Positions 1,539 through 33,981 are shown, numbered from the stretch's first letter. The stretch is 33,981 nucleotides of DNA from an uncultured virus (IMG/VR IMGVR_UViG_3300030116_004105) (IMGVR_UViG_3300030116_004105:62001-95981), one strand, 5' to 3'. Numbers and translations: made by a program. The notes: generated by a model not told the origin, from the letters alone.

Positions 1539-1579
1539 GATCTAGCTGTGTTGTTGATTACTTGTTGTTGTTGCTAGGG

Positions 1580-1612: not shown

Positions 1613-2058
1613 TAATCTTGACAAGCTACAAATACTTCTATTTGTATAGTACCACTAGATGACTTTGCAGCTATACTATCTATATTAGCTAAAGTCTCAC
1701 TTGTACTAAGCGCTGTATCACCATCCTCCATTGCATCCATTTTGTTGTTTCCTAGTAAGAAATGATCTTCTGATTCTAGTTTTACAAAATATTGCGAGTC
1801 TGTCATTTTTACTTTAAGAGTTATATCTGCAGATCCATCTAGGTTTGTAATACGTAAATATTGTACAGAGTCATCTTTAAATGTACCTGCTGATGCAGCT
1901 GCACCAAATTTAACTACATCTACGTATGCTGTACCTACATCCATAATTCTGTGTGATACTTCATTTACAGTTTCAGTGTGTGTATTTGTTGTACCTCTAT
2001 CAGTACTACCGTCACCCATTGTAACGGCTTCAGTTAATGTTATTGTTAGTGTTGCCAT
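1612..2058 (-). CDS. Hypothetical phage protein, beta-rich, possibly structural
   Basis: 148-aa ORF, last in the late module. T/S/D-rich with alternating hydrophobic strands (YLRITNLD, IQIEVFVA). No catalytic motif recognised. Confidence 0.7.
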   Translation of the reverse strand: MATLTITLTEAVTMGDGSTDRGTTNTHTETVNEVSHRIMDVGTAYVDVVKFGAAASAGTFKDDSVQYLRITNLDGSADITLKVKMTDSQYFVKLESEDHFLLGNNKMDAMEDGDTALSTSETLANIDSIAAKSSSGTIQIEVFVACQD

Positions 2059-2194
2059 TGTCTATAATTATATAAATTTGTATTAATCCTAAAAATAATT
2101 GCACTTCATAATACGGTGCATACTCTTCTGGTTGGAAATGTCTTACGCCAACTATTAATCCTTTTGACCATCCTATACCGAATTCAAACTTCAT
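2030..2194 (-). CDS. Small hydrophobic 54-aa protein absent from the ORF track
   Basis: Manual translation MKFEFGIGWSKGLIVGVRHFQPEEYAPYYEVQLFLGLIQIYIIIDNGNTNNNIN*. ATG overlaps the stop of the giant gene (TAATG) and the ORF fills the otherwise empty gap. Confidence 0.7.
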   Translation of the reverse strand: MKFEFGIGWSKGLIVGVRHFQPEEYAPYYEVQLFLGLIQIYIIIDNGNTNNNIN

Positions 2195-16890: not shown

Positions 16891-16896
16891 ATTTAT

Positions 16897-18729: not shown

Positions 18730-18738
18730 AATTTTATT

Positions 18739-20130: not shown

Positions 20131-20136
20131 AATTAG

Positions 20137-20168
20137 CAAATATATTCTATTTTATTATCTTCGAGAAA
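20137..20168 (-). promoter_or_regulatory. Candidate Bacteroidota housekeeping-sigma promoter for the cargo/RNAP genes
   Basis: Minus-strand TATATTTG (20144-20137) matches the -7 box TAnnTTTG in a short intergenic gap. TTTC (20168-20165) lies 20 nt upstream, a 3/4 match to the -33 TTTG. Confidence 0.45.
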
Positions 20169-23100
20169 TTCTAAATAAGGTTTTTACGTAATGTAATAGT
20201 AGTTTAGTAGCGGAGTCTGAAGATAACAATACTTTTAAATATGTATCTCTGAATCTATAGCCTCCCCCTGTTCTTGGAACAGGTAATTTTGTTAACTTTT
20301 CTTTTACTTCTTTATATGGAAAATATGCAGGATTACTTTGACTAATTAATTCTACTAGTTTTGTAGCAGTAGATGTTGAAAATATAGCCTCATTAATTAT
20401 ATCTTGCCCTGCTGTATCTGACTCTGCATACCATTCTAAATTATCAAATACTTTAGAATTTAAAGGATGCTTATTTACTATAAACTCAATTTCAGTTTTA
20501 AAACTAGTATCATACCAAGTGCTAGAAAGATAAGAGTTATGCTCAAATAGTTCATCTCTTTTACTTTGAATTGGATTTACAGACAATAGATTAGTTGGAG
20601 CATTTATATACATAGGAGTGTAAAAAGAATATCTTGATGTAAACTTATTTATATCCTCACTAAATACTATTGTTTCTCCTGCATTTACTATACCAGGATC
20701 AAAGATACTATACAAGACTTCATTATTTTTATAGTCATATCCTAAAACTATTTTAGGAAAATTGTTTACAATCTCATCACTAGTTAAACTAAATAAAGAT
20801 TTAACTCCATGTGTATCTGATATACTTTCTAGACCGTTTGCTCTAAAAGCATATGCTTTTTTATTATTTGAATCAAACCAGTACAGTCCTCTAGGAGTTC
20901 CAACTACAGCTTTAAAAGAATTACACCCTATATTATTTGATATATACTGAAAGTCTTGTATAACAGATCCAGTTCCTAAAATAATAGAAGCTCCATCATT
21001 ATCAACAACAGTAGACACAGGATTTATAGATAATTTACCAAATCCATAGTCTTGTAGAAAATACATTATGTCGTTATTAACGATTAACTTATTTATAGAT
21101 CCTTTCAAACCTTCTAAATCTTTATAATTTTCAAGTCTAAATTTTCTCCAAGAATCCATTGCTGAGTTGTTTATTTTTGCATCAGAGTATATAACTCTAG
21201 AATCAAATTTAGATGTCTCAACAAAGTTTAAAGGTTTAGGTAAAAACGCTTCAACATTATTTTCAATAGAGTAACAAGTTTCTAAATCAAATGTATTTAG
21301 TTTAGTGTCTGTGTCTATATCCCAATCTGTTTTATTTGCAAAATGCCACCCTCCTCGTATTGTAGTATTGAAATATGTTTCTACAGGAAAAGCATAACTA
21401 GTAGATTTAGTATCATAATATTCAGAAACAGGATCGTTTGTTGTGTTAAATAAGCCACCATCACCAATATCTCCTGACGCTCTTCTTATTTTTTCTATGT
21501 CGTACATAACAACATAAGTATCTCCTCCCCAAACATCATGTCTACCAAACTCATCTACTTGATCAGGTTCATTTATATTTATTAATGGCCCTGCTGGTAT
21601 ATAAAGATTATTTCTTCTTGCTTGCTCAGTGTTACCTCCATATTGAGCACTTAGTATTCTTTTTACAGAAGCTAAAATTTTACCTCTACCATTTTTAGCA
21701 ATGTTTGTACTTGCAGTATTAAAAAATGCTGTGATTATAGGAGAATCTAGCGAGTCTAAATTAAAACCATATTCATCTAGTCTAACAAATAAAGTTTCTT
21801 CTCCTACACCAGTTACATAATGGTTGTTTGCTGTGATAGTGGTGCTTGAAAATGCTTTATTCCATAGTCCAATGTTTGTTTCTTCATTATAGTTTGAAGT
21901 TTCTCCAAAAAAATCAGTTCCAGGTACATCAATATTTTCACCTGGCTCTAATTTTGTAGAGAACTCTACTCCTATTTTTGAACTATCAAAAAAATCTGAA
22001 TTAAGAGCTAATGTATGAGAACTAAATATAGCAGCTTCTCCTTTTGCTCCTCCTAAAAAATTATTATCAATTACACCTGTAACACCCCCTATAAATTCTA
22101 TGTAATTACAATTCCCTGCTGGGTAAGAATTACCAAATGCAAAGTCTGGAGAATCTATAGTAATATTTCTTCTGTGTGAGTCTGTAACTTGTGCAGCAGT
22201 TCCAGTACCACCTATAGGAGCTCCAATACCAGAACCAAAATCTCCAAAATCTTCTGGGTATCCTAAACGATTTCCAGTACTACTATTGTTAAATCCTATA
22301 TATATGTGTTGTTGTTGCGCGTCCCACCATTGAGGCATAAAATTAATAACTCCTGTACCAAGAACTGTTCTATCTCTATCTTTTCTTTCTACTCTAACAA
22401 TTCTATAACCACTAATTTTATCTTCAAGCTCTTGGGGAATATTAACTGTAAACTTAATACCTAAAGCATATAAAGTATTTTTAGCAGAACTATTAAAATT
22501 ATCATCATTAAAATTATAACTACTATTAACTTGATCATACCCGCCATTGTTATCAGGATCATAATATTCCATGTTTGCATAAGCGTTGATGTCACTTTCT
22601 GTATGATTATAATTAACTCCAGAACCAGTATCACTAGTTTGAGCTAATGTATAATTATATATCCCTCCGTACAACCCGTCTTTGTGATCGTAGTCTCCAT
22701 AGTTTGGAAACTTAATATCACCTATCCAATTTACAAATCCTGGATTACCGTATTTATCGTATAGTACAACCCCAAATCTATATATTTCATTTCTATGATA
22801 CCCTACAAATTCAGATGCATTTCTTGGAGATTTATAATCTCCTTTAAAAAGAGTATCATCATCATCACATCCAGCTTGATAAAAGTTTGATTTAACAAAG
22901 GGAGCTTGATCAGGTATTGATGAAGATGAGTTACCATCTAATTGTTTTTTAAAAAATTCATACTCTACGTTTGGCCCTTCTCCACCTAAAGTTATTCCAT
23001 CTTTTTTAAATTTATAATGTAGTTCTCCAGGAATAGCTTCTTCACTATCTATGTTATAAGGGTTAATAGCATCTATATTTTCTTGTTGTGAATAGGTAAA

Positions 23101-24354
23101 ACTTCCTTGTAAGTTTATAGGATCAAAGTTTTCATCTACATATGTAGTCATTTCTCCATCAACTTCAGACTCTTCTAAACTGAGTCTTGGGTATTTTTCT
23201 CCATCAGGTCTTACATATCTATAAGCTCTAGCATTAAACTCTAAATCAAAAGCAGAATATTCTAATCCGCCCATAAAAAGTCTATTATCTTTAGCTTCTA
23301 TTGTTTTAACCTTAGATGGTAGATCTATTATTTCTGTTATTTCTTCTGCTAACAGAGCTTCTCCAATACTAGTTTCATGTATAATTTCTACTTCTGTAGA
23401 GTTTAATATAACTTCTTCTACTATATAAGCACTATTTATAGAATTTTTAGCTGTTCTATATATTGCTGCAAGTTCTAAAGAATCATAATCATCATCGATA
23501 TTTTCTATACGTACATAAACAGCCTTATCAGTTGCATCTCCTGCAATTGTATTGCTGTATTCGTTTTGGTTTTCTGGATCTTCTTGGTAATTCCAGTACA
23601 AGGAACCATCTACTATATGTATACCATTAGATAACGGTGAGAATCTTGATACTAGTCCTTGTTTTGTTTTTAGCCTATACGCATACTGATATGTTCCTGC
23701 AATTAAGGCTCCACTACCATCAACTTTAGTTACTTTTGGAGAAGTAAAATTTACTGGAACATTTAAGGATAACTCTTCTGCTGGTAAATTTTCTAATTCA
23801 GCAGATTTTATATTTAAAGTTCTAGCTGGATTTAAATTATCTGTCCAATAAACCCTTTGTATATTTTCAGATTCATATATACCTACAGCTTCAATAGGGT
23901 AGTCAAAATTAAAATTTAACTCCTCAGACACATATATTACTTGAGCTGCCTCACCATAATTATTTAAGTCAACTGTATATATTAAATCTACCTTTACATC
24001 TTGTGCAAATATTCCACCCTCAAAAAGAGTTCCTGTTCCTATAGCATATAAGATTAATGTATTTCTTATTGTTGTGTGTCCTATTATAGATACGTCTAAA
24101 TGTTGAAAGTCCTGAGCAATAGGTACAAATACTCCATTTATTAGGCTAAGTTCATAATTATAAGGATATAGGTATCTAAGAGTTTTTATTTTTTCATTAC
24201 CATCTACAGTAGCAGCTATTGCAGATTCTCCTTCACGTCCCCCAGAAACAATTCTTATATTTTTAGCATCTGTATAAGATCCATCTTGTGGTATAGTAGA
24301 ACCTAAATCTGATTGTAGGCCGTTTTGAAATGTATTTATATGCTGATCTTTCAT
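20155..24354 (-). CDS. Tail stabilisation / muzzle protein (P22 gp10-like, crAss-type)
   Basis: 1399 aa. N-terminal NTFQNGLQSD..DAKNIRI; YESENIQRVYWTDNLNP; YQYAYRL; EIYRFGVVLYD; C-terminal KVFDNLE..RFRDTYLKV. Follows the tail tubular gene with a TAATG overlap. Confidence 0.82.
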   Translation of the reverse strand: MKDQHINTFQNGLQSDLGSTIPQDGSYTDAKNIRIVSGGREGESAIAATVDGNEKIKTLRYLYPYNYELSLINGVFVPIAQDFQHLDVSIIGHTTIRNTLILYAIGTGTLFEGGIFAQDVKVDLIYTVDLNNYGEAAQVIYVSEELNFNFDYPIEAVGIYESENIQRVYWTDNLNPARTLNIKSAELENLPAEELSLNVPVNFTSPKVTKVDGSGALIAGTYQYAYRLKTKQGLVSRFSPLSNGIHIVDGSLYWNYQEDPENQNEYSNTIAGDATDKAVYVRIENIDDDYDSLELAAIYRTAKNSINSAYIVEEVILNSTEVEIIHETSIGEALLAEEITEIIDLPSKVKTIEAKDNRLFMGGLEYSAFDLEFNARAYRYVRPDGEKYPRLSLEESEVDGEMTTYVDENFDPINLQGSFTYSQQENIDAINPYNIDSEEAIPGELHYKFKKDGITLGGEGPNVEYEFFKKQLDGNSSSSIPDQAPFVKSNFYQAGCDDDDTLFKGDYKSPRNASEFVGYHRNEIYRFGVVLYDKYGNPGFVNWIGDIKFPNYGDYDHKDGLYGGIYNYTLAQTSDTGSGVNYNHTESDINAYANMEYYDPDNNGGYDQVNSSYNFNDDNFNSSAKNTLYALGIKFTVNIPQELEDKISGYRIVRVERKDRDRTVLGTGVINFMPQWWDAQQQHIYIGFNNSSTGNRLGYPEDFGDFGSGIGAPIGGTGTAAQVTDSHRRNITIDSPDFAFGNSYPAGNCNYIEFIGGVTGVIDNNFLGGAKGEAAIFSSHTLALNSDFFDSSKIGVEFSTKLEPGENIDVPGTDFFGETSNYNEETNIGLWNKAFSSTTITANNHYVTGVGEETLFVRLDEYGFNLDSLDSPIITAFFNTASTNIAKNGRGKILASVKRILSAQYGGNTEQARRNNLYIPAGPLININEPDQVDEFGRHDVWGGDTYVVMYDIEKIRRASGDIGDGGLFNTTNDPVSEYYDTKSTSYAFPVETYFNTTIRGGWHFANKTDWDIDTDTKLNTFDLETCYSIENNVEAFLPKPLNFVETSKFDSRVIYSDAKINNSAMDSWRKFRLENYKDLEGLKGSINKLIVNNDIMYFLQDYGFGKLSINPVSTVVDNDGASIILGTGSVIQDFQYISNNIGCNSFKAVVGTPRGLYWFDSNNKKAYAFRANGLESISDTHGVKSLFSLTSDEIVNNFPKIVLGYDYKNNEVLYSIFDPGIVNAGETIVFSEDINKFTSRYSFYTPMYINAPTNLLSVNPIQSKRDELFEHNSYLSSTWYDTSFKTEIEFIVNKHPLNSKVFDNLEWYAESDTAGQDIINEAIFSTSTATKLVELISQSNPAYFPYKEVKEKLTKLPVPRTGGGYRFRDTYLKVLLSSDSATKLLLHYVKTLFRISRR

Positions 24355-25271
24355 TATCTATTAAAATTTCGTCTTATTTCTGGAGATACTTGAGTTGCAA
24401 AAAATGTTTCATGTGCATTTATATTAGGAAGCAATCGCATCACTTGATTCTTAATACCTTCTAACTGATCTATACTTGGCATCTTAGCTTTATTACCTGC
24501 TTGTCCTACATACCATTGCCACTCTTGTTCTGAGTGTTGGAATATATCAGATCTAAGTTCACCTCTTCTCCAAGCTATATAATCTATCTTCATTGTAAGA
24601 TATTTTTTTATAGCTAGTTGGTAGCTTGTATCTTCAGGTATTAAAGGTAGGCCATCATCATCAGTTGGCACTGCTAAATATGCTATACAAACATTACCTT
24701 CTTTTACAGATAATGTAATATGATTATTATTTATATCAAAAGTAATTCTTCTATTTTCTTGGGCTCCTCCATTTCCTAAGTAAAATTCTTGAGTACCATC
24801 AGACATCAAGTTAAGATTCTCCATGTCTTCTAAGTCTCTGGCTTGATAGGAGTATGATTGAGTTTCCTCATCATATGTAAGAACATCTTGCCCCCAGTTC
24901 CTTGTAATTATTTGCTCACTATTATAGTATAACCCTGAGCTCATATCTTCTTCTACGCCACAACAATCTCCTGATAGTAAATGATGAAAGGTATTGCTGG
25001 CATACTCAGCAGGTCTACCATTTACAGCTATCTGTTCTAGTTGATAAAAATCACAAGGTAAATGCGCTCTGTAATCTTTTATAGCAAGATCAGGATTGCT
25101 TTTATGTCCAGTTACTTTTCTTATGTATTGTCTAGGGTGCCCTATTAAGTTAAGAGCCTCTTCTGTCCACTGCATACAATCAACCCACGGTAATTCAAAT
25201 TGATAACCGTTGTCAGCATATACTTGCTCCATGATTGCTTTTAGTGATATATATTTTCCGTTTAGTGCCAT
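24354..25271 (-). CDS. Tail tubular / ring protein (P22 gp4-like)
   Basis: 305 aa. W..EALNLIG, AHLPCDF, IAYLAVPTDDDGLPLIP and WQWYVGQA motifs; immediately upstream of the muzzle gene. Confidence 0.8.
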   Translation of the reverse strand: MALNGKYISLKAIMEQVYADNGYQFELPWVDCMQWTEEALNLIGHPRQYIRKVTGHKSNPDLAIKDYRAHLPCDFYQLEQIAVNGRPAEYASNTFHHLLSGDCCGVEEDMSSGLYYNSEQIITRNWGQDVLTYDEETQSYSYQARDLEDMENLNLMSDGTQEFYLGNGGAQENRRITFDINNNHITLSVKEGNVCIAYLAVPTDDDGLPLIPEDTSYQLAIKKYLTMKIDYIAWRRGELRSDIFQHSEQEWQWYVGQAGNKAKMPSIDQLEGIKNQVMRLLPNINAHETFFATQVSPEIRRNFNR

Positions 25272-25286
25272 ATTATTTTATTTTAT

Positions 25287-27764
25287 TTAAGGTACAGAGT
25301 CATATTCTGCACTAGTTCCTAATAAAGTATTATAATCCCACTCTATTACTGTTGTTGCATATATAAATGTATTACCCATTACATCTGCGCTAGCCTGTAT
25401 TGATACTGCAAATTTTTCTGTACTTTCAAAATGTTTATCATTGCTAAATCCAAAGTGTAAAACATGGTTGTCATCTGTAGATGTTATAGGTAAAACTTCA
25501 GACTCTTCTAAAGTCCAACTAGATAAACTTGTTCCAGAAGTGTTTGGACCTATAGAGTAAACTTTAACTGTAAGATCACCAGAACCTGTGACACTCATAA
25601 TACTTAATGAAACAGAAACCACTCTACCATCGCATGGAGCTAGTAAAGCTACATCATCTTGATAAACTTGAGCTTGTTCAAATGTTGTACCATGTATAGG
25701 CATAAAAACTTCAGAAGTACCAAAATCATCTACAAAGTTAGTTGGAAATACTTGATACTGTTTACCTGTAATACTTCCTGTAACATCTAAATTAGCCCTA
25801 ACGTGAGTATTTGCACTACCATCAAATGTAATTGCTGCATTACCACTTGAATCTTTTATATCGTTACCTGCTACAATTATATCTCCTGCAAAATAACTAT
25901 CTCCAGAATGAATTTTAAGAGCATAATTATTAGTAATAGTTTGATTAGTACTTGCAAATGGAGCTCCTTTTATAAATACAGTAGCAGCATCGGTAGTTGT
26001 TACAGATGCATTTGTAGCAAATAATCTAGGATTTTCAAAAGTTATATGATTGTAGGTACTTGCTGTTCCTGATGCAGATGTAGCATTATCTGTTATATCC
26101 ATAGCATCAACATGTATTGCTGCACCATCTGCGCTTGGTGTTACATTTCTATCACCGTCTAATATTATTCCCTTTTCAAATGTTTTAGTCCCAGTAAATG
26201 TTTGACTAGTAGATAAGTGTGCAGTATCTTGATCTAAATATGCACTAGCAATGGCAGTGCCTTGCCAAGTACCAGAACTTATTGTACCAACACCTGTAAT
26301 ATTAGATTGATTAGCGACTTGTAAAACCCCGCTGTTATCAGCAAATAAAGTAGAACCGACTACAATAGTACCATTAATAGTAGTTACAGATGCCGCTCCA
26401 TTACCTAAAGTAACATCTACTTCGTCTTCTACATTACCACTATCTAACTTTAAACCAGGCTGTAGTTCTCCATCATGACTTGCTACACTAAGTGTTAATC
26501 TACCTTCTTCAGAACCATCTGCAGCTACTTGTATTTCACCTAATACTTGAGCATATGTATGTGGACCGTTTCCAGAATCATCTTCAGCATCAAATTTTAT
26601 TACACCAATATCATCACCATCTGCTCCAGCTGTAGCTGTTCTATCAAATATAAGTGAAGGGGCTTCTGCGTCAGAATTAGTATTTGATATATACACTGCA
26701 GGCCTAGCACTAGTTGAAGAAGCAATAACAAAATTACTACCGTTAAAGGTAAGATTGTTATCTGCAGTCAAAGCACTTGTACCATTACCTCTTAAAATTT
26801 GACCGCTTGTAAATGTAGTAGAACCAGTACCACCGCTTCCTACAGGAACAGTACCGCCTGTTATTTCTTGACCTGATAAACTTAAATAATTTGTATTAGC
26901 TAATGTAACTGCATCATGATCCCTTGCTGCTATATCTACACCATCTACTGTTCCTGTAACAGTTATGTTACCAACAAAATTAGCTGCTACATCTGTTAAT
27001 GTTAAAATACGTGTAGCAGGATCACTGTGTTGAGTAGATCCGCTTGATACTGAGCTAGCAACAGAAAATCTTATTTCTCCTGCATCAGCCTCTCCTGTAC
27101 CTAATCCGCTATGAAATCTTAAGTTACCTCCATCTGAATTTGTACCTGAACCACTCCCTGCTCTAATAACGAGCTGTCCGCCTGCACCAGTTGAACTTTT
27201 ACCTTTTCTTTGTATTGTTATTGAAGTAGAATCATCTCCTCCTAATTCTAAAATATCACTTCCAAAAGTCAACTCAGACTCAGATGTAACAGTACCATCA
27301 CCATCATCAGTTAGTAATTGATTAGCTGATCCGTTTACACCTGCGCCATGCAAGTCTGTAATATTGTCAGCATGCACTGTTCCTGTACCACTTTGTGTTA
27401 AATCTGGAGGTATAGTATCAACAACTAAGTCTATAGTGCCATCGCTATCTTCATATGTAGCTGCTATTCTAGTCTCAGTATTTGATGTGAACATAGCTCC
27501 TACAATGTCTTGTATTTCTTCTTCAGTTTTTCCTCCACCCGAAGCATACTTAACAACATCACTACCATCCAATACAAGAAATTTAGTAGAACTAGATACA
27601 TCACTCTGTACACCCTCTAATTTTATAGGGTCAGCAGCATCCTTCACATGTAATTTATGTGTAGGAACTTTTGTCCCAACACCCACTTTAAATAAAGTAA
27701 ACATGTCAGAAGATTTAAGCCGTACCTGTTTCCAGAATGATATTATTTTATCTTTTATTGCCAT
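25287..27764 (-). CDS. Tail fibre / spike-like protein
   Basis: 825 aa, G/S/T/D-rich. Fibre-type motifs VGVGTKVPTHKLHV, VPVGSGGTG, NITGVGTISSGTWQGTAI and QTFTGTKTF; distinct C-terminal beta domain. Confidence 0.72.
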   Translation of the reverse strand: MAIKDKIISFWKQVRLKSSDMFTLFKVGVGTKVPTHKLHVKDAADPIKLEGVQSDVSSSTKFLVLDGSDVVKYASGGGKTEEEIQDIVGAMFTSNTETRIAATYEDSDGTIDLVVDTIPPDLTQSGTGTVHADNITDLHGAGVNGSANQLLTDDGDGTVTSESELTFGSDILELGGDDSTSITIQRKGKSSTGAGGQLVIRAGSGSGTNSDGGNLRFHSGLGTGEADAGEIRFSVASSVSSGSTQHSDPATRILTLTDVAANFVGNITVTGTVDGVDIAARDHDAVTLANTNYLSLSGQEITGGTVPVGSGGTGSTTFTSGQILRGNGTSALTADNNLTFNGSNFVIASSTSARPAVYISNTNSDAEAPSLIFDRTATAGADGDDIGVIKFDAEDDSGNGPHTYAQVLGEIQVAADGSEEGRLTLSVASHDGELQPGLKLDSGNVEDEVDVTLGNGAASVTTINGTIVVGSTLFADNSGVLQVANQSNITGVGTISSGTWQGTAIASAYLDQDTAHLSTSQTFTGTKTFEKGIILDGDRNVTPSADGAAIHVDAMDITDNATSASGTASTYNHITFENPRLFATNASVTTTDAATVFIKGAPFASTNQTITNNYALKIHSGDSYFAGDIIVAGNDIKDSSGNAAITFDGSANTHVRANLDVTGSITGKQYQVFPTNFVDDFGTSEVFMPIHGTTFEQAQVYQDDVALLAPCDGRVVSVSLSIMSVTGSGDLTVKVYSIGPNTSGTSLSSWTLEESEVLPITSTDDNHVLHFGFSNDKHFESTEKFAVSIQASADVMGNTFIYATTVIEWDYNTLLGTSAEYDSVP

Positions 27765-27765
27765 A

Positions 27766-28074
27766 CTAGCATCTACATCTCCAACGTCTTAATGACTGAT
27801 TGATTCTTGAATTTCTATCTCTTGCTGTTTTAGCACTAGTTCTTCTTCTTTTCATACCACACATTCTAGAACAAAAAGACTTTCTTCTCTTTGCTGCTTT
27901 ACTTCCTTTCTTTACATCACCAGTTACAGCGGTCTTTAGTTTTGATCCAGGGTTAGCTCTACGATAGGCTTTTACACCTTTCTTGGTCATACCTGCGCCT
28001 TTTTTAGTAGGTCTAAAATTACCAGACTTTACACTAGTTTTTATACCCATACCTTTTCTTTTAGTTGCTGCCAT
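27766..28074 (-). CDS. Small very basic protein, DUF6321-like
   Basis: 102 aa, K/R-rich. GMTKKGVKAYRRANPGSKLKTAV..RRKSFCSRM..SRINQSLRRWRC resembles the phage DUF6321 pattern (from memory). Confidence 0.7.
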   Translation of the reverse strand: MAATKRKGMGIKTSVKSGNFRPTKKGAGMTKKGVKAYRRANPGSKLKTAVTGDVKKGSKAAKRRKSFCSRMCGMKRRRTSAKTARDRNSRINQSLRRWRCRC

Positions 28075-28076
28075 AA

Positions 28077-28397
28077 TTAGTAGCCCCCTCCCCCTGAGTA
28101 TCCTCCTCCAGATCCACCTGAAGACGTAGTAGTTCTAGTAACTGTAGGAGTTGCAGTTCTAGTCGTAGTTCTAGTTGTAGTCCTAGCTGTTCTAGTAGCC
28201 GTAGTAGTTTGTGTTGCTGCCCCTTCCATATCTGTAGGATGAGTGGTTCTATACTCCATCATAACATAAGGACTTGATTTATCTCCATTAGTTAATGTGT
28301 GAGCAGTGTAAGCTCCTGTCATTAAATAGAAGTTACCATTCTTTTTTACCATAAAGTGGTACCCTTCCGGTGCAAATACTTTTGTTTTTTGTGCCAT
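28077..28397 (-). CDS. Hypothetical protein with Thr/Arg-rich and Gly/Tyr low-complexity tail
   Basis: 106 aa. N-terminal APEGYHFM domain, then TTTATRTARTTTRTTTR..SSGGSGGGYSGGGGY; tightly packed between neighbours. Confidence 0.7.
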   Translation of the reverse strand: MAQKTKVFAPEGYHFMVKKNGNFYLMTGAYTAHTLTNGDKSSPYVMMEYRTTHPTDMEGAATQTTTATRTARTTTRTTTRTATPTVTRTTTSSGGSGGGYSGGGGY

Positions 28398-28399
28398 AA

Positions 28400-28864
28400 T
28401 TACATAAAATAATCTAGTTCTCTATTTTTATCTTTTAATATACCTGCTAGAGTTCTTGTATTTGTTCTTGTTGGAATAAAAGAGTATGCTGTTATATTTT
28501 TAACTATACCTTTTGTCCAATAGAATCTATACTTATATCCACCAGTATGATCATTTAGATGATAAATTCTTTTACCTAGTTTTCGACTAGCTGCCCAATC
28601 AATCTTAAGTTTATTTTTATCATCATATTTCATTTTAGACTTTTTTATTCTTATTGTTCCTAGTCTATAAGGAAGTCTCATTTCTTCTGAGTTTACTAAT
28701 ATTTCATCAATAAATAATTTATTAAACTCATCACATATTTTTCTAAACTTTTGTTTATCAACCTGTAATTCAGGTATTACACTATTCTTATAATGTGTGT
28801 ATACATCATTAGATCCAAAATCTTTTTTATAGTTACCTTCCCCTCTTTTTGAATTTTCAAACAT
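28400..28864 (-). CDS. HU/IHF-like DNA-binding protein (crAss late-module type)
   Basis: Helix then EMRLPYRLGTIRIKK (HU-like) and YSFIPTR; KIDW..S and YRFYW. Position among tail ring genes as in crAss-like phages. Confidence 0.75.
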   Translation of the reverse strand: MFENSKRGEGNYKKDFGSNDVYTHYKNSVIPELQVDKQKFRKICDEFNKLFIDEILVNSEEMRLPYRLGTIRIKKSKMKYDDKNKLKIDWAASRKLGKRIYHLNDHTGGYKYRFYWTKGIVKNITAYSFIPTRTNTRTLAGILKDKNRELDYFM

Positions 28865-29559
28865 TATTTTTGAGTATTAGGTTGAAAGTCAGACTTAGCA
28901 TTATTAGAACTATCTGTTAGAGTTTCTATAAAAGGCTTCATGTTTTGAGTTAACATACTAGTTTTTATTAAATCTAACATAGACGTAGATAAAGGATAAT
29001 CATGATTATCTGGATCATAAGAAGGATTACCATTTACATCCATAAAGTTTGATATTTCTCTTGGATTTTGAAACACTCCCTCTGCTTTTATTTTATCTAA
29101 GTACTTAGCCTCTGGACCAGTTACATAAATAAAATTATCTAACAAGAATGCAAAAGTCATACGCTTTGTATACTTATTAGTTCCTATCCAAGGAGCTCTA
29201 TTATAAGGTACCATATGAAAGTTAACAGATAAAATTCCTGTAGGCCCTATAGCTGTTATAAGATCTGAGTGCGATGTTTCTATTGGATTAGGTATTTGTT
29301 GCTTAGATCTCATTATTTTTAAATCAGCAGGTAGCCCACATGTTGATCCAGAAACAGCTTCCACATCTAAACAGTGTATAACCTGTTTAATATTATCTGA
29401 AATACTTCTTCGTTTATTTATATCTTGTCGTATAAACTGAGCTCTTAAGCTGTTTATTTGAAATTCTATTTGACGATCAGATATAATTTCATCGTCTGAT
29501 TGCATACCACCTCTAATAAGGTTTTTAATATCGTATACTATTTCTTTTATTGTTGCCAT
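28864..29559 (-). CDS. Tail ring / adaptor structural protein
   Basis: 231 aa. TIKEIVYDI..SDD..ISDRQIEF....RAQFIRQ and GVFQNP..YPL pattern; synteny upstream of the IHF-like gene. Confidence 0.68.
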   Translation of the reverse strand: MATIKEIVYDIKNLIRGGMQSDDEIISDRQIEFQINSLRAQFIRQDINKRRSISDNIKQVIHCLDVEAVSGSTCGLPADLKIMRSKQQIPNPIETSHSDLITAIGPTGILSVNFHMVPYNRAPWIGTNKYTKRMTFAFLLDNFIYVTGPEAKYLDKIKAEGVFQNPREISNFMDVNGNPSYDPDNHDYPLSTSMLDLIKTSMLTQNMKPFIETLTDSSNNAKSDFQPNTQK

Positions 29560-30723
29560 TTATTTTAAATTAACTTGTAAATATCCTTCACATCCTTTTT
29601 CTCTGTTCCATATATAAGCCTGCGCTTCTCTTTTACTATGATACCCCATCATTTTATGCCAGGCATCATGTGTTGCAATACTTGGAAGGAATCTAACTTT
29701 TACTCCTTGGTAGGTATTGACAATTTCTCTGTGCTGATGTCCGCAGTGCACTTCTCTGTGCTCACACTCTGCAAACATTGCTGGCCTTTCGGTTGCCATG
29801 AGAAGGGGCATGTCTGCCGGCTTCTCTTTATCCCCATGTGTAAACATAAGCATATTGTTTCCGTATTTGTAATACTTTCTTGACTCATAACTATTATATA
29901 CTGTCACTGGTTTATAATTTCTATACCAAGCTTCTATTACTTCTCCTATATAAAACATACGTTCAAAGTCATGGTTACCTTGCACCACTATAACATCTAC
30001 AGGTGCAAATGCAGATAGATAATCTATTGCTGTAACTAGTAACTTCCAGTAACCTCTAAAGGTTTGTTGCCATTCTTCAGCATCATGCTGTGGTGTACCT
30101 TTAGTGGTAGCTCTACTATATCCTTCAGAGTTAAGACCATCGTTACCAATAGGTAGTATAAATCTTTCTATGTTTAATCCTTTGGCTTTTCTATGTAACT
30201 CTTTTACAGTGTTCATAAAATCCAAATTATTATCCTCTTGAGATATAGCCCCTATCTTACCGTAATGAAAATCAGGTAAAGATATTTCGTAGGCTACAGG
30301 AGATCCCTCTGTAAGGTTGTAGTTAGGAACTGCAACCTCTGGGATATACTGTTTCATTTCTTCAAAGAACTCTTTTTTAAACTGCTTAAGATCAAATCCA
30401 TTTTCTTTTGTTACTACAGAAAACCTATATTCTCCATTAGCAGCTTGCCAGTGTTTGACTGACTTAACATCTTGTTTTTTTATTCCCCTCTCTTTTAGAT
30501 GTAAATCCAGTTCGGGTATATATAAAGGATCTATATCCCCTATATTTTTTGTTTCGTTTACATTATCATTACTATCCTTCCATCCGTATCCTCCTGCGTA
30601 TTTTCTGACTCCTCTAACAACCTTTGCTATATTGCTTTGGTCTATACCTAATGCACCACTTGCTTCATAGATACTAGAGAATTCATCAATAACGTTTCCT
30701 TCTCTGTCTAACTGTTGTATCAT
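29560..30723 (-). CDS. NUMOD1 DNA-binding domain fused to calcineurin-like metallophosphoesterase
   Basis: N-terminal IQQLDREGNVIDEFSSIYEASGALGIDQSNIAKVVRG..AGGYGWK (NUMOD1). Phosphoesterase motifs DFH, GND, GNHD, HGD and GHQH in order. Confidence 0.85.
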   Translation of the reverse strand: MIQQLDREGNVIDEFSSIYEASGALGIDQSNIAKVVRGVRKYAGGYGWKDSNDNVNETKNIGDIDPLYIPELDLHLKERGIKKQDVKSVKHWQAANGEYRFSVVTKENGFDLKQFKKEFFEEMKQYIPEVAVPNYNLTEGSPVAYEISLPDFHYGKIGAISQEDNNLDFMNTVKELHRKAKGLNIERFILPIGNDGLNSEGYSRATTKGTPQHDAEEWQQTFRGYWKLLVTAIDYLSAFAPVDVIVVQGNHDFERMFYIGEVIEAWYRNYKPVTVYNSYESRKYYKYGNNMLMFTHGDKEKPADMPLLMATERPAMFAECEHREVHCGHQHREIVNTYQGVKVRFLPSIATHDAWHKMMGYHSKREAQAYIWNREKGCEGYLQVNLK

Positions 30724-31106
30724 TGTTTTTTAATTTTTTCTATACTTCTTCCAGCAAAATAAGCACCGTACACGGTGATTAATAGTGTCTGGTAGATAGG
30801 AATATAAGCCGGAGCTATTTCAAATCCTCCTGCATTCCCATCAAATATAGAAATAATTACAAACATTGCTGTTAAAAATATACATATCAGCGGTCTAATG
30901 TTTTTACTTAGCCAGTTATCGGACTTCATATCAGCCTCCCAACGTCTAGTAACTTGTTCTTGTGCTTGAGCTTCAGCTTGCATAAGAACTTCTTCCATAG
31001 CCTGTTTAGCAGCTAATCTTTCTTCTTCAGTAGTAGTTAGATTATCTATTACTCCTCCTACTTTTTCTATAACGTTTCCGCCTAAAAATTTTAATAATTT
31101 ACTCAT
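30720..31106 (-). CDS. Holin (GTA 3TM-holin-like)
   Basis: TTEEERL..RWEADMKSDNWLSKNIRP, two hydrophobic helices, GAYFAGRSIEK; adjacent to the endolysin. Confidence 0.8.
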   Translation of the reverse strand: MSKLLKFLGGNVIEKVGGVIDNLTTTEEERLAAKQAMEEVLMQAEAQAQEQVTRRWEADMKSDNWLSKNIRPLICIFLTAMFVIISIFDGNAGGFEIAPAYIPIYQTLLITVYGAYFAGRSIEKIKKQ

Positions 31107-31576
31107 TAAAGTGCTTTTATATTATCACTGGCATGTCTATAAGCTGTTTTACCTTGATCGTTTTTATAAGCTTCTAGTACTTGCTTTCTATTTTTGCTTG
31201 AACTAAATGATATATGTATCCATGCAAAATCAAACTCGTTTATCATTTGATCAAATTCTAAACCTGAGTCTAGCACCCAATCATAGATAACTTTATTATT
31301 CATTTCTCCATCTTTCCAAAACTGCAGATCCAGTGCTTCACCTTTACAGTGTTGCGAGCGGCTACTTCCCCCGATAGCACGATTAAGTTTCGGGCTGCGA
31401 TAACCACTGCTAATACGGATAGGACCGATAGCATCGCGCATAGGCTGAACAAGCTCTGTAATGATAGTCTGCAGATTAGCCAGGTGTTCTTTATCTGGTT
31501 CATTACTTATTCCTTTTCTTCTTGCTGTATTACTTCGAGTAATCTCTGACAATACAAAATTCTTACTTAGTCTCAT
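31106..31576 (-). CDS. Peptidase M15A-family Zn endolysin
   Basis: LSKNF.LSE, ISSGYRS..LN..IGG...SQH..GEA.D and WIHIS Zn-ligand motifs. Confidence 0.9.
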   Translation of the reverse strand: MRLSKNFVLSEITRSNTARRKGISNEPDKEHLANLQTIITELVQPMRDAIGPIRISSGYRSPKLNRAIGGSSRSQHCKGEALDLQFWKDGEMNNKVIYDWVLDSGLEFDQMINEFDFAWIHISFSSSKNRKQVLEAYKNDQGKTAYRHASDNIKAL

Positions 31577-31585
31577 AATTTATAT

Positions 31586-31921
31586 TTAAAATGCTTCCAT
31601 TACAATTTCGTCTATAGACTCTTGCACTTCTTTTCTAGTGGCTTCCATAGTCATCATAATATTTGCTTGAAATCTTTTTACTTCTTCGTTATTATTAAAT
31701 ATCACAATAGTGGGAACTACCACTATTTTATATTCTTTAGACCACCTAGAGTCAGATGTTATATCTACTCGTTCTGTTTCACAGTCTGATAACTTTGGTA
31801 ACCATTCTACCTGGTTAGCTGCATTAAAACTAGCATTAAACTCAACAGCAACCATTCCATCAGGAAAGTCTTGAGCCATAGCGCCAGTGTAAATACAAAA
31901 TAAAACAAATAGTTTTTTCAT
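31586..31921 (-). CDS. Exported thioredoxin-fold protein lacking CxxC
   Basis: Signal peptide MKKLFVLF..AMA|Q. VEFNASFNAAN aligns with the Trx VDFWAxWCxxC; RVDI, YKIVVVPTIVIF (cis-Pro strand) and EEVKRF match Trx. Confidence 0.75.
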   Translation of the reverse strand: MKKLFVLFCIYTGAMAQDFPDGMVAVEFNASFNAANQVEWLPKLSDCETERVDITSDSRWSKEYKIVVVPTIVIFNNNEEVKRFQANIMMTMEATRKEVQESIDEIVMEAF

Positions 31922-31927
31922 AAGATA

Positions 31928-32212
31928 TTATTTTAAGTCATCTATCTTTTCCTCAAGACGTAGCATATGCCCTTTAATTTCTTTTACATCGTCTTGAGTT
32001 GTCATAATAGTTTGACGAATTAATTGATCCTTCATATCATACTCCATGCGAGTAATCTCAGGATCTGGTGGCTTAGGTAATTCCTTTGCCTCTGATATAT
32101 CTGATTGTAGTGTAAACCACATACCTACAAGAGTGAAGATTAACACTGCTATACCTGCTAATGTTTTTATACTCAGTTTTAGAGTTGTGTCTTCATTTAT
32201 TTCTTTTGCCAT
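31928..32212 (-). CDS. Single-pass membrane protein with C-terminal coiled coil
   Basis: TM segment LAGIAVLIFTLVGMWFTL, Pro linker LPKPPDP, heptads VKEIKGHMLRLEEKIDDLK. Confidence 0.75.
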   Translation of the reverse strand: MAKEINEDTTLKLSIKTLAGIAVLIFTLVGMWFTLQSDISEAKELPKPPDPEITRMEYDMKDQLIRQTIMTTQDDVKEIKGHMLRLEEKIDDLK

Positions 32213-32214
32213 CT

Positions 32215-33252
32215 TTAAAATATTACATAGTTAAGGCCAACGCTAAAGTTGTGCCATTGTCTGTTCCAATACTTATTGTATCTACCTTCTATAAATACAC
32301 CTAAGCTTTTATTAAATCTATATCCATATATAAGTCCTGCTGAATAATCTAACCATTGTTTACCCTTATAATTATAATAAGAGTATTCGTTACCTGTGTC
32401 TATATGATAAGGCATAAGGTTACCCCAGCTATGAAACCAAAAGTCTTTTGTAAAGTGATAGTAATCAAATCCTAATACTGCAGAGTATTCAACTATATTA
32501 GAAAGTGCAGATCTTTGCGCTTCTACATAATCATCTATTACTTGTGGTATAACAACTTCTTCCCATACCTCTTGACTAGTTGCTACTACCTCTCCATTGG
32601 GTGCTGAATATTGTCCATCTAATGTTATAGTGTATCCCTCTTGAAGTGCCAAGTATGTATAGTGTAATGTCCCATTGTCCAGCACCCAGTCTGCCAGGGG
32701 GTCAAATCCATATGGCTCTGCAAGTCGCTGTACTGCACCTACGTTTACAGATAGTTTACCTGCTTCACCTATTTGCAATCTAAATCTTTCTGATGCTTCA
32801 AAGTATTTTATGTCTGCAAAACCATCTTCAAGATACTCTATTTTACCTACCCAGCTATCTGCAACATATCTTACAAAATGATGCTGGTTAGTAAAATTAA
32901 CACCTAAACGGCGTACAAAATCAGCCTCGAATAAATACTCAAAGCCATCGACTCTACCAATTGTGGCAGCATCACTGTATGAATTTTCTGTACCATTATA
33001 AAAAGTAAGAGCCCTGTTTTCATATCCAAATCGTTTTATTTTTCTTATACCTATAGATAATGTATAATCAAAAGGTGTTTCTATTGTTTGTTCTTCTAGT
33101 GTACCAGATGTAATAGACCATATCTGATCATCACCTAATGATGTACCACCATTAACTGCAGCATAAAATGTAGAGTATTTAAATATTTTATGTAAACCTT
33201 GTGCGTTTCCTAAAAAAGGAATAAATACTAATATTAATAATAATTTTTTCAT
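32215..33252 (-). CDS. Predicted outer-membrane beta-barrel protein
   Basis: Signal peptide MKKLLLILVFIPFLGNA|Q; aromatic-rich amphipathic strands (YSAGLIYGYRF, LGVFIEGRY); C-terminal FSVGLNYVIF ends in Phe, like a BAM beta-signal. Confidence 0.75.
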   Translation of the reverse strand: MKKLLLILVFIPFLGNAQGLHKIFKYSTFYAAVNGGTSLGDDQIWSITSGTLEEQTIETPFDYTLSIGIRKIKRFGYENRALTFYNGTENSYSDAATIGRVDGFEYLFEADFVRRLGVNFTNQHHFVRYVADSWVGKIEYLEDGFADIKYFEASERFRLQIGEAGKLSVNVGAVQRLAEPYGFDPLADWVLDNGTLHYTYLALQEGYTITLDGQYSAPNGEVVATSQEVWEEVVIPQVIDDYVEAQRSALSNIVEYSAVLGFDYYHFTKDFWFHSWGNLMPYHIDTGNEYSYYNYKGKQWLDYSAGLIYGYRFNKSLGVFIEGRYNKYWNRQWHNFSVGLNYVIF

Positions 33253-33980
33253 TTCTTTAATACTTTTCTAGTGCTAGTGTTACCATTATATGTTACGCTA
33301 AAATTATATATACCTGCTGGTAATAAACCTACATCTAATTGATTTAATCCTTTATGCGTTTGATTTTCTTTTATTTTAATTACAAGTTTACCAGATACAT
33401 CATAGACTCTTATACTTACAGGACCATTTGTTAATATGTTTAACATATCTCCCATAGGATTTGGATACATAACTACATTATGCCCTCTAAGTAAATCTCT
33501 TGTATCTAATGGACTATCCCAAGAACAGCTCCAATATATCTGCTGACATTTATCATCCCATTCATTATTACAACAATAAGGATCTATTAAAATAACCCAA
33601 GCATAGCACGTGTCATTCAACCAATAAGGAATACCAGGACCATCAATACAACCTGCATCGTATAAACAACTTCCATCATCTGTATTGTATATAGCATCAT
33701 AATTGTATCCAAGCGGGTCCATACATCCTTCTAATACATCTATACATCCTCCATTGTCTGTGTTAGCTAATGAATCGTAATTAAATGCTGTATCGTCAGT
33801 ACATCCATAAACTACATCTACACATGAGAAATCTTCTGTATTTGCATCTGGACTGTAATTAAAAGCATTAGGGTCTGTGCATCCAGGTGTCACCGGAATA
33901 CACGATCCATTATCGGTGTTAGCAACAGGGTCATAATTAAATGCAATAGTATCAGTACAACCAAATATAAAAGGTATACA
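33249..33980 (-). CDS. T9SS substrate: Cys-rich GCTD repeats plus type A C-terminal sorting domain; 5' end beyond the window
   Basis: CTD VMYPNP..LNI..YDVSGKLV..LDV..LPAGIY..KVLKK (YPNP at 33456-33467). Frame open to the window edge (CIPFIFGCTDTIAFNY..), so GTG 33893 is not the start. Confidence 0.88.
   Translation of the reverse strand, partial: CIPFIFGCTDTIAFNYDPVANTDNGSCIPVTPGCTDPNAFNYSPDANTEDFSCVDVVYGCTDDTAFNYDSLANTDNGGCIDVLEGCMDPLGYNYDAIYNTDDGSCLYDAGCIDGPGIPYWLNDTCYAWVILIDPYCCNNEWDDKCQQIYWSCSWDSPLDTRDLLRGHNVVMYPNPMGDMLNILTNGPVSIRVYDVSGKLVIKIKENQTHKGLNQLDVGLLPAGIYNFSVTYNGNTSTRKVLKK
33654..33962 (-). repeat. Four tandem ~78-bp (26-aa) coding repeats GCxDxxAxNYxxxANTDxGxC
   Basis: Units begin at 33962, 33884, 33806 and 33728 (78-nt period); two Cys per unit. 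Confidence 0.92.
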
Positions 33981-33981
33981 G

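Follow-up and report, generated by a model that had tools for sequence, protein, structure and literature searches.

A phage-only trio of predicted envelope proteins beside endolysin and holin genes, coupled in one crAss-like clade to a T9SS type A cargo

The window analysed here is a stretch of 33,981 nucleotides (62001-95981) of the contig IMGVR_UViG_3300030116_004105, which comes from an uncultured, marine, crAss-like phage. At its end, the ORF map places a cargo fragment, a barrel, a TM coiled-coil and a thioredoxin-like ORF, all on the minus strand, next to two lysis genes. The features of this region, in window coordinates, are:

28864..29559: CrAss_Ring_2 (E 7.3e-36)
30720..31106, minus strand: holin, GTA_holin_3TM (phrog_3427), from profile matches
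31106..31576, minus strand: endolysin of the Peptidase_M15_3 type (phrog_894), with neither signal nor TM segment
31586..31921, minus strand: Trx-like protein, 111 aa, predicted to be exported, with a thioredoxin fold lacking CxxC
31928..32212, minus strand: TM coiled-coil protein (TM-CC), 94 aa, predicted inner-membrane
32215..33252, minus strand: predicted outer-membrane beta-barrel protein, 345 aa
33249..33980, minus strand: fragment of a T9SS type A cargo, its last 243 residues, the 5' end open at the contig end
33261..33470, minus strand: type A C-terminal sorting domain (CTD; Por_Secre_tail) of this cargo, ending 3 residues short of the stop
30719..33981 (contig 92719..95981), no strand: copy 2 of a 3.3-kb direct repeat, 85.7% identical to copy 1 at contig 5416..8747
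33904..33981, no strand: the final 78 bases of the contig, identical to contig 8670..8747

An earlier note on this DNA had described four co-oriented, tightly coupled genes, and the coordinates bear this out: the cargo stop overlaps the barrel start (ATGA), and gaps of 2 nt and 6 nt separate the barrel from TM-CC and TM-CC from the Trx gene. The block then runs, across a 9-nt gap, into the M15 endolysin, whose stop overlaps the holin start (TAATG). Its placement inside a phage late module holds as well: together with CrAss_Ring_2, the Ring_1 and muzzle proteins encoded in the flank of the other repeat copy make the context of this block Crassvirales-like. The four ORFs are real genes and not chance ORFs: the whole block is present in a second copy, 85.7% identical in nucleotides, and a comparison of the copies reveals purifying selection on each of the six genes (dN/dS 0.03-0.27, dS 0.28-1.02).

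The cargo fragment carries the type A CTD that the earlier note had read from it, with scores above both curated cut-offs: PF18962 (Por_Secre_tail) matches with 48 bits (E 1.6e-12, cut-off 27) and TIGR04183 with 46.1 bits (E 3.4e-12, cut-off 23), and the type B model CHU_C reaches only 16.8 bits (cut-off 27). The PF18962 match spans residues 171-240 of the 243-residue fragment, which is its extreme C-terminus, and a six-frame search finds the CTD in both repeat copies (window copy at G000 95261-95470). PF18962 also exceeds its cut-off in 53/53 orthologous cargo C-termini tested (53 of 67, near-duplicates dropped). Ahead of the CTD lie Cys-rich GCTDxxAxNYxxxANTDxGSC repeats and a Cys/Trp-rich module. 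The window copy is truncated, and the full-length paralogue (L001 8015..10489, 824 aa) begins with a predicted signal peptide, MLRLINILLLLTLTVNA/QD, the slash marking cleavage; orthologue N-termini look alike (by eye and crude patterns).

Close relatives differ in this protein (417 to 1325 aa, 35-86% identity), while the other three proteins are conserved. Residues 100-430 have 1046 relatives at E<=0.001; among the 120 matches listed, all are metagenomic and 117 have PF18962 as their sole Pfam domain. The Atlas comparison of this region returned viral clusters without a name and a weak MAM hint at 0.80. Its AF2 model, which is weak (pLDDT 64), contains two beta-sandwich domains but nothing like an enzyme fold, with Foldseek matches to generic beta-sandwiches (TM about 0.15); a recognised enzyme domain was not found in the cargo either. 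This phage also encodes two giant proteins of 3070 aa and 1660 aa, probably tail-associated, in which the Cys-rich repeat recurs.

The barrel protein has a signal peptide ending ...GNA/Q (by eye), a putative periplasmic loop (residues 72-102) and the C-terminus ...NYVIF, with a terminal Phe. Its AF2 model (pLDDT 76, pTM 0.71) has 14 strands and a helical insert at residues 185-248; the closed barrel of the model, the signal peptide and the C-terminal aromatic residue are together those of a predicted outer-membrane beta-barrel. All fold matches are to generic outer-membrane barrels (TamA barrel, Z 11.0; NanC, E 3e-5), with FadL (Z 8.2) below the generic barrels at Z 10-11 and no single barrel family prominent. 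Sequence searches gave no family match in Pfam, NCBIfam or PHROGs. Models for PorV, PorP/SprF and PorQ matched none of 26 members of the barrel family (Pfam/NCBIfam, E<=0.1 and E<=1), PF11751 (PorP/SprF) is absent at E<=1 from the six frames of the contig, and tblastn of the barrel against GenBank phage records returned no match. There are 3547 homologues at E<=0.001, forming 324 clusters at 50% identity, and marine viromes are rich in the trio of barrel, TM-CC and Trx-like protein.

TM-CC is the best conserved of the trio, with 37 of 94 alignment columns invariant. As judged by eye, its N-terminus is short and cytoplasmic; a single TM helix (about residues 17-35) and an LPxPP linker come next, then a TRMEYDMKD motif and a C-terminal heptad-like helix; the putative periplasmic part comprises about 58 residues and contains no Cys. 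With this type II inner-membrane topology (by eye), a helical periplasmic part and lysis genes nearby, it fits the build of an i-spanin. A PDB search with its profile returned nothing, PHROGs gave weak matches only, to phrog_736, 1009 and 20984 of unknown function (E 7e-4 to 1e-2), no ORF is embedded in its gene, and no sequence similarity to annotated spanin families was found.

The homology of the Trx-like protein to thioredoxin is solid. PF00085 gives 21 bits on the window protein, under its cut-off of 23.5, and 33.1 and 38.7 bits on clade B orthologues; the family profile matches the PDB thioredoxin 2vim_A (E 1.1e-6), and the likeness in fold and sequence includes the cis-Pro strand (VVPT). 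The active site differs: CxxC is missing in 17/17 aligned members, in which WCGPC is replaced or deleted, and the window protein reads FNASFNAAN where thioredoxin has FWAxWCGPC. Variants among the members are FNASFN or FNAGWN, and FWAxWNxAN in clade B. Without CxxC the protein would carry out no redox chemistry. It is also phage-only and predicted to be exported, and Gln17, where cleavage is predicted, is invariant. In cargo, barrel and Trx-like protein alike the first residue after the predicted signal-peptidase site is Gln, and Gln at +1 is the Q-rule of Bacteroidetes (PMC10367356). The marks of the four envelope locations proposed in the earlier note were thus recovered: Gln at +1 of the signal peptides, the type A CTD, the modelled barrel of 14 strands with its terminal Phe, the helical tail that follows the N-terminal TM helix of TM-CC, and a CxxC-less Trx fold. 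Signal peptides and TM helices were assigned by eye and with crude patterns.

Loci with the barrel gene form three clades. Clade A, that of the window (79 loci), contains TM-CC in 76, the Trx gene in 77 and the CTD cargo in 74. In clade B (barrel about 34% identical, 78 loci) the counts are 62, 64 and 0, and in clade C (barrel about 32% identical, 16 loci) 16, 16 and 0. Clade C is not crAss-like; its Ad1, Hc1, Neck1 and tail-terminator genes are those of a long-tailed phage type. The gene order is barrel, TM-CC, Trx, endolysin in clades A and B, and TM-CC, Trx, barrel, endolysin in clade C; the trio abuts the endolysin despite the differing order. A secreted Cys-rich protein lies beside the barrel gene in 74/79 clade A and 75/78 clade B loci; the one in clade B is another protein, with acidic repeats, which has no Pfam family and does not resemble the clade A cargo (best E 0.64). 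No large Cys-rich partner was present in the clade C gene maps of L174 and L182. Two scans of 185,579 species (one genome each) returned only nine loci, all of them MAG contigs of unrelated taxa with the phage cassette; the MAG bin that contains the loci L089 and L090 has no PF18962 match.

The homologues are viral and not chromosomal, and the four genes co-occur, two points that the earlier note had asked to be checked. Its view of the four products as one T9SS-based machine is not supported: the trio occurs without CTD cargo in clades B (0/78) and C (0/16), PF18962 is missing from the L089/L090 bin, the barrel has no PorV, PorP/SprF or PorQ match, and the tie of the trio to lysis genes is more consistent than its tie to the cargo. 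The trio, which can be separated from the cargo, is the conserved core; the locus is two units coupled by this phage clade, not one machine.

The contig itself calls for care, as the whole cassette occurs in it twice at 86% identity and the contig end lies inside the repeat. The exact 78-base copy means that the contig stops at a repeat node; ending in a repeat of its own cassette points to an assembly lariat, and joining the contig ends as a test of circularity revealed neither a terminal repeat nor a clean junction. The underlying structure may be an 87,234-bp circle to which a foreign branch of 8.7 kb was attached, or a genuine duplication. One could suppose from this that bacterial envelope genes were joined artefactually to a phage contig, and the depth profile might be read the same way: in X1 it steps at about 31.6 kb from 19-41 (28.0-31.6 kb) to 57-171 (31.6-33.2 kb), and likewise in X2 and X3, where depth is summed over public contigs that are 95% alike or more, other organisms included. 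We attach no meaning to the zero-depth bins of X11 or to parts of the window for which no public contig is listed. We consider such an artefact very improbable and largely refuted. The order cargo, barrel, TM-CC, Trx, endolysin, holin recurs in 50/79 independent viral loci. Another record (L002) has 86-97% protein identity from barrel through holin, the 86% being Trx; its NUMOD gene and Ring 2 are 89-90% identical. An X11 contig, from another study's run (record 13), aligns on 31449-31735 and crosses the endolysin/Trx junction, and the cellular scans returned nothing other than the nine phage cassettes. Of the earlier worry about a chimera, what stands is that the contig ends in a cassette repeat; the gene junctions are reproduced in independent contigs. 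A coverage break at this place, the criterion set by the earlier note, does exist, but Trx and barrel are more conserved (dS 0.28-0.47) than the endolysin (dS 1.02), and the step agrees with that difference.

We then considered the position of the trio relative to lysis genes at loci with at least 1.5 kb downstream (n=162). A lysis gene follows the trio directly in 92/162, where labels were drawn from three endolysin types and one holin family only; the next gene has no recognised lysis label in the other 70. By clade, endolysin or holin comes directly after the trio in 55/78 loci of A, 26/64 of B, 10/12 of C and 1/8 of the MAG contigs. Within 3 kb downstream a lysis gene is present in 110/162 loci and in 52/162 there is none. 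The M15 endolysin lacks an export signal, so this is a holin-endolysin system still needing an outer-membrane step, and no lipoprotein o-spanin was found in the contig (lipobox scan of all ORFs of 30-250 aa in six frames; one spurious hit elsewhere).

The reverse comparison starts from 78 loci retrieved through the holin family: at 61 of them no trio member lies beside the holin, including the crAss-like L232 and L249 with good flanks, and the trio is accessory. Seven such trio-less holin loci were inspected and contain no lipoprotein spanin, so no swap of trio for spanin could be shown. A predicted complex of barrel 19-345, Trx 18-111 and TM-CC 36-94 gave an ipSAE of 0.02.

The nearest parallel is the two-component spanin of the lambda Rz/Rz1 type. 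As described in PMC6139136, such a pair shares with the trio the position of an envelope set beside endolysin and holin, a type II inner-membrane member with a helical periplasmic tail and an outer-membrane partner (predicted here), as well as late synthesis and placement before wall degradation (proposed here). The trio differs in having no lipoprotein, a 14-strand integral barrel, a third member of Trx fold and a TM-CC without periplasmic cysteines; according to the same source most spanins use disulfides and only about 4% lack them. It also gives 91/677 phages in which no spanin was found and treats another route of outer-membrane disruption as an open question (PMC6139136). One such route is known from a phage without spanins, whose cationic peptide phiKT gp28 disrupts the outer membrane (bioRxiv 10.1101/515445); it is a precedent for a different device at the same step, and is a single small peptide as opposed to the three-protein envelope set here.

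On this basis we tentatively favour, at somewhat less than an even chance, that the trio supplies a spanin-like outer-membrane lysis step and that the T9SS cargo is its clade-specific companion. Contact within the trio, the topology of its products and their part in lysis are what we infer. Unit 1 would be a conserved, phage-only envelope trio of type II TM-CC, exported CxxC-less Trx and 14-strand barrel, expressed late along with holin and cytoplasmic M15 endolysin. Host Sec and BAM would place its members before the holin fires. They may bridge the inner and outer membranes; after the endolysin has removed the cell wall, the bridge would breach the outer membrane as the last step of lysis, with an integral barrel and a Trx adaptor in place of a lipoprotein o-spanin. 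No spanin that we know of is built on an integral barrel, and it is difficult to see how a barrel anchor could bring about membrane fusion. Unit 2 would be a variable Cys-rich beta-sandwich cargo that bears a Sec signal and, at its other end, a type A CTD, and whose gene is coupled in translation to that of the barrel; the host T9SS would export this cargo to the cell surface or the medium, where it may bind or mask host surface glycans. In a wider form, the trio would be a three-component outer-membrane disruption machine of Bacteroidota phages and the first barrel-anchored spanin substitute, on a cassette exchanged between crAss-like and long-tailed phages and T9SS-coupled in one clade; this we hold to be possible rather than probable.

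A different use of the same proteins, close to the view of the earlier note, is that the barrel serves the variable Cys-rich exoprotein as its dedicated partner in the outer membrane, whether as shuttle, anchor or exporter, and that TM-CC and Trx would help to hold or fold this exoprotein in the periplasm. The pairing of a Cys-rich protein with the barrel (74/79; 75/78) fits such a partnership at least as well as it fits lysis; clade B, without CTD cargo, has its other secreted protein there. Cargo and trio also stay together when their order is shuffled, to barrel, TM-CC, Trx, cargo in L072, L073 and L079 and to TM-CC, Trx, cargo, barrel in L077, and since the cargo has dozens of cysteines, a dead Trx would be a plausible holdase for it. 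Moreover, the barrel gene directly follows the cargo gene (ATGA overlap in 60/67 loci), the same order in which Flavobacterium johnsoniae encodes a type B substrate and its cognate PorP/SprF-like shuttle (PMC12618676). However, the CTD here is type A, and according to that report the host PorV recognises all type A CTDs; none of the 26 barrel members scanned matches PorP/SprF, PorV or PorQ, the contig lacks PF11751, and barrels of this family also occur without CTD cargo. In clade C the trio stands beside endolysin and holin with no CTD cargo (0/16) and, in L174 and L182, no large Cys-rich partner, and the clade B protein is unlike the clade A cargo and belongs to no Pfam family. We think this partnership unlikely; in clade A it would mean that the host T9SS translocon moves the type A cargo and that the phage barrel takes it over and displays it.

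Another possibility is that the cassette alters the surface of the infected cell, the cargo and perhaps the barrel masking or occupying the phage receptor, which would block superinfection and keep progeny off debris. Phage T5 Llp acts in this way on FhuA. A variable cargo (417 to 1325 aa, 35-86% identity) beside a conserved trio would suit such a role, as would a model with two beta-sandwich domains and no enzyme fold, and the repeat common to the cargo and the two giant proteins could mean that it shares the binding specificity of the virion. The genes lie in the late block beside lysis genes, though, while genes for superinfection exclusion tend to be early ones; the weak cargo model (pLDDT 64) has generic fold matches (TM about 0.15), and the trio in clades without cargo would be left unexplained. 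Inter-strain competition or superinfection is also what the Cryophage authors suggest (PMC7468147), but for the present locus we regard a surface role as improbable. The spanin-like lysis step with a companion cargo remains the reading that we carry forward.

Phage-borne T9SS cargo is not itself new, and the statement in the earlier note that crAss-like phages have no characterised equivalent was too wide. The variable genes of 'Cryophage' encode type A cargo, namely an endoglucanase, a GH39 and a PA14 protein (PMC7468147), and T9SS sorting-domain ORFs occur in gut crAss-like contigs (PMC6949934). Common to these and the present locus is a phage gene with a type A CTD and a presumed hijack of the host T9SS, and in Cryophage the cargo is likewise strongly variable between phage variants. 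The cargo described here differs from the Cryophage enzymes and PA14 protein (PMC7468147) in being a predicted Cys-repeat beta-sandwich without a recognised enzyme domain, coupled to a barrel in the lysis region. The trio, by sequence, has no match to described families apart from the thioredoxin fold of one member, and a full-text literature search found no description of it.

To our knowledge, lysis in Bacteroidota phages, including the abundant crAss-like group, has barely been studied. If the trio acts in lysis, it would represent a new class of lysis proteins and a marker for phages of Bacteroidota. It bears on the open question of how spanin-less phages breach the outer membrane, and it is small enough for expression tests. 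The T9SS-tagged cargo is a large, conserved addition to the few published phage proteins loaded on a host secretion system.

The window comprises the final 33,981 bases of a single virus record 95,981 bases long. Nearly all its long ORFs lie on the minus strand, and those at its end form a compact run:

33249..33980, minus: T9SS cargo fragment, cut by the contig end
32215..33252, minus: barrel, 345 aa
31928..32212, minus: transmembrane coiled-coil protein (TM-CC), 94 aa
31586..31921, minus: thioredoxin-like (Trx) protein, 111 aa
31106..31576, minus: M15 endolysin
30720..31106, minus: holin
29560..30723, minus: NUMOD/I-HmuI-like DNA-binding modules fused to a metallophosphoesterase (phrog_704), 387 aa, between holin and Ring 2
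28864..29559, minus: crAss tail Ring protein 2

The order in the direction of transcription is cargo, barrel, TM-CC, Trx, endolysin, holin, NUMOD/metallophosphoesterase and Ring 2. Cargo and barrel overlap by ATGA, gaps of 2 nt (to TM-CC), 6 nt (to Trx) and 9 nt (to endolysin) follow the barrel, and endolysin and holin overlap by TAATG. The earlier note had described four co-oriented genes, coupled by the ATGA overlap and the 2-nt and 6-nt gaps, that run into endolysin and holin, and this holds. The NUMOD/metallophosphoesterase gene is an insertion, because holin directly adjoins Ring 2 in the contig's other copy of the cassette (the barrel, TM-CC and Trx trio with cargo, endolysin and holin). 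Elsewhere in the window, the largest gene is a single 4898-aa ORF (2194..16890, minus), and a run of 10 N occupies 64..73 (contig 62064..62073).

The barrel matches no family in Pfam, NCBIfam or PHROG. Its AlphaFold2 model (26-sequence alignment; pLDDT 76, pTM 0.71) shows 14 strands together with a helical insert (residues 185-248) and a low-confidence 30-residue loop (72-102); judging from strand order, the insert would face outward or plug the lumen, and the loop would face the periplasm. Foldseek and VIA-align matched it to outer-membrane barrels alone, from many families, including NanC (E 3e-5) and the TamA barrel (Z 11.0, rmsd 4.2, 186 aligned). A search of 5.8 billion proteins at E<=0.001 gave 3547 homologues, which fall into 324 clusters at 50% identity; the best 120 of the 3547 share 79-91% identity with the barrel and are of marine metagenome origin.

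After a short N-terminus, TM-CC runs through a single hydrophobic helix and an LPxPP linker to the invariant motif TRME[YF]DMKD, and it finishes in a C-terminal helix. Aligning 15 sequences, down to 56% identity, leaves 37 of 94 columns unchanged, and database and profile searches found no known relatives. Its TM helix takes one of two forms, AVLIFTLVGMWFTL or AVLMAAAISGWFVL (window 31928..32212; the contig's first 20 kb, L001, 6631..6915). Which form a locus has does not follow overall similarity, while the periplasmic part hardly varies. The Trx family profile matches thioredoxin 2vim_A (1.1e-6), the CGPC loop being deleted; CxxC is missing from all 17 aligned members, and orthologues from a distant barrel clade (clade B) score above the PF00085 cut-off. 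Gln17, where cleavage is predicted, is shared by all 17. A Gln follows the predicted signal-peptidase site in cargo, barrel and Trx; this is the Bacteroidetes Q-rule (PMC10367356), and at these predicted sites it would be a mark of the host that is independent of the C-terminal sorting domain (CTD).

The cargo scores above the curated cut-offs of both Por_Secre_tail and TIGR04183, with the domain stopping 3 residues short of the stop codon, and below that of the type B model CHU_C. A full-length paralogue of 824 aa (L001 8015..10489) has a predicted signal peptide ending VNA|QD, a Cys module that we take to be LNR-like, and many GCTDxxAxNYxxxANxDDGSC repeats. Its central region was modelled as two beta-sandwich domains, weakly (pLDDT 64) and with generic fold matches. 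The 120 listed relatives of the cargo central region are all metagenome-sourced, and PF18962 is the sole Pfam domain in 117. A repeat of the same type, GCTDxxAxNYxxxAxxDDGSC, also occurs in two giant, probably tail-associated proteins of this phage (3070 aa, contig 12666..21878, starting in L001; 1660 aa, contig 24139..29121). The cargo adds a member to a published kind: earlier reports describe a phage-encoded T9SS type A cargo in "Cryophage" (PMC7468147) and ORFs with a T9SS sorting domain in gut crAss-like contigs (PMC6949934). According to PMC12618676, type A CTDs rely on host PorV, and the gene just downstream of a type B substrate encodes its cognate SprF-like shuttle.

We surveyed the neighborhoods of three barrel clades. 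In the window's own clade (A), 80 viral loci were fetched with its barrel, and tblastn found TM-CC and Trx in 79/80 each. ORF calling and local HMMs were applied to the 79 loci whose barrel ORF is whole, which contain TM-CC (76), Trx (77), CTD cargo (74), M15 endolysin (60) and holin (56); the five cargo-less loci each have <335 nt upstream of the barrel. The full order from cargo to holin is kept in 50/79, and shuffled orders include barrel, TM-CC, Trx, cargo and TM-CC, Trx, cargo, barrel. Clade B (query P0133, barrel about 34% identical; 78 loci) has TM-CC in 62, Trx in 64 and CTD cargo in none. Beside the barrel in 75/78 stands another secreted protein of 182-305 aa (for example L091 9539..10456, L105 8065..8733, L127 8028..8798 and L160 8011..8559), with long acidic TDT/VET repeats and a DGWxDCxDGSDE-type Cys module, presumably LDL-receptor-A-like; it has neither a Pfam match nor similarity to clade A cargo, and its C-terminus faintly resembles the last strands of the CTD. 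Clade C (query the L090 barrel, about 32% identical) has TM-CC and Trx in 16/16 loci and CTD cargo in 0/16, and the whole bin holding L089 and L090 gave no PF18962 match. Its order is TM-CC, Trx, barrel, endolysin, holin, downstream of head-tail adaptor, head closure, neck and tail terminator genes, which makes it a long-tailed phage and not crAss-like. Since CTD cargo is absent from clades B and C, the trio is the conserved unit and the cargo an addition of the window's clade. The earlier note's viral cassette with a T9SS-tagged cargo is thus supported, and its single four-gene system is not.

Two small proteins accompany these loci. In 17 loci of clade A an exported one (phrog_29588/26616, "lipoprotein") separates TM-CC from Trx, and in clade C it lies between Trx and barrel (for example L017 6493..6795, L053 9325..9627 and L090 8588..8959). 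Another, of 70-80 aa with two hydrophobic helices (NDNxWNEKxVVGFxAF...EKFAK), a holin-like build and no family match, is encoded at L001 11382..11597 (minus) and in 57 related loci (clades A and B and the MAG contigs), where it lies <=4 kb from the trio.

Two scans of one genome per species (185,579 species) returned no locus and nine loci, respectively. The nine are MAG contigs whose labels name unrelated taxa, ranging from Flavobacteriales to Nitrosopelagicus and Woesearchaeota; trio genes occur in 9/9, the barrel in 8 (L087 is cut at its start) and a cargo match in 5. We read them as binned phage contigs. The homologues are therefore not confined to bacterial chromosomes; it was such confinement that the earlier note had named as refuting its proposal.

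The holin-to-cargo block occurs twice in the contig (5416..8747 and 92719..95981), with 85.7% identity over 3344 columns. The cassette genes are real, with dN/dS between copies of 0.03 (holin), 0.18 (endolysin), 0.08 (Trx), 0.27 (TM-CC), 0.09 (barrel) and 0.08 (cargo C-terminus) at dS of 0.28 to 1.02. The copy at 5416..8747, counterpart of window 30719..33981, follows a second, divergent crAss tail set (contig 1..5417: muzzle protein, Ring 1, Ring 2 and a 158-aa protein). The latter three are 28-31% identical to the window versions, and the 785-aa muzzle-like protein did not significantly match the window's 825-aa protein with which it was compared. The contig's last 78 bases exactly copy 8670..8747, and the only duplicated part is 2355..10489 versus 86354..95981. 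In the related records rated complete, of 94,285 and 88,499 bases, the barrel is single-copy. The contig resembles an assembly lariat in which two co-occurring phages are joined via the shared cassette: the assembler would have entered from the related phage through the cassette, rounded the 87,234-base circle (8748..95981) once and stopped at the shared node. The cassette may instead be truly duplicated in the genome. On both readings it is found against two very different tail backgrounds, with 86% nucleotide identity between the copies, and is therefore passed between lineages as one unit.

The earlier note had held that a coverage break near 31.6-32 kb would betray misassembly. When public marine contigs >=95% alike were placed on window 28000..33981, a step did appear at about 31.6 kb in three runs, with summed depth over 31600..33200 (Trx, TM-CC, barrel) 2 to 40 times that of the flanking endolysin/tail genes, a depth that takes in other organisms and is not copy number. 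The step falls where more conserved genes begin, a contig from another study spans the endolysin/Trx junction (31449-31735), and independent viral records reproduce the gene order. We take the gene junctions as sound and the contig end alone as suspect. The high depth implies that many co-occurring phages share the cassette almost unchanged.

In diderm hosts, holin-endolysin lysis requires a third step. The contig has no lipobox ORF fit for an o-spanin, the TM-CC gene contains no nested ORF, and the endolysin carries no export signal. Since this step is needed, the trio is its sole candidate in the cassette and TM-CC is built like the i-spanin of two-component spanins, the trio may have a spanin-like role, a reading from genomic context and architecture that we hold tentatively, as somewhat short of probable. 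Over 162 loci with >=1.5 kb downstream, endolysin/holin is the next gene after the trio in 92 (clade A 55/78, clade B 26/64, clade C 10/12, MAG contigs 1/8), and a lysis gene lies <=3 kb downstream in 110; endolysin types differ (M15; Amidase_2 with PG_binding_1 in L081; the phrog_3000/33083 type in L089, L117 and L232). Against this reading, the adjacency is not universal, 61/78 loci of the holin's relatives have no trio beside the holin, TM-CC is short and without cysteines, and in clades A and B the barrel is almost always joined to a secreted Cys-rich protein. PMC6139136 reports no spanin found in 91/677 phages, and 10.1101/515445 assigns the outer-membrane step of phiKT to a cationic peptide. 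Full-text literature searches found no barrel or thioredoxin as spanin substitute. The trio is undescribed in the literature searched, and we propose it as an envelope set of the lysis cassette.
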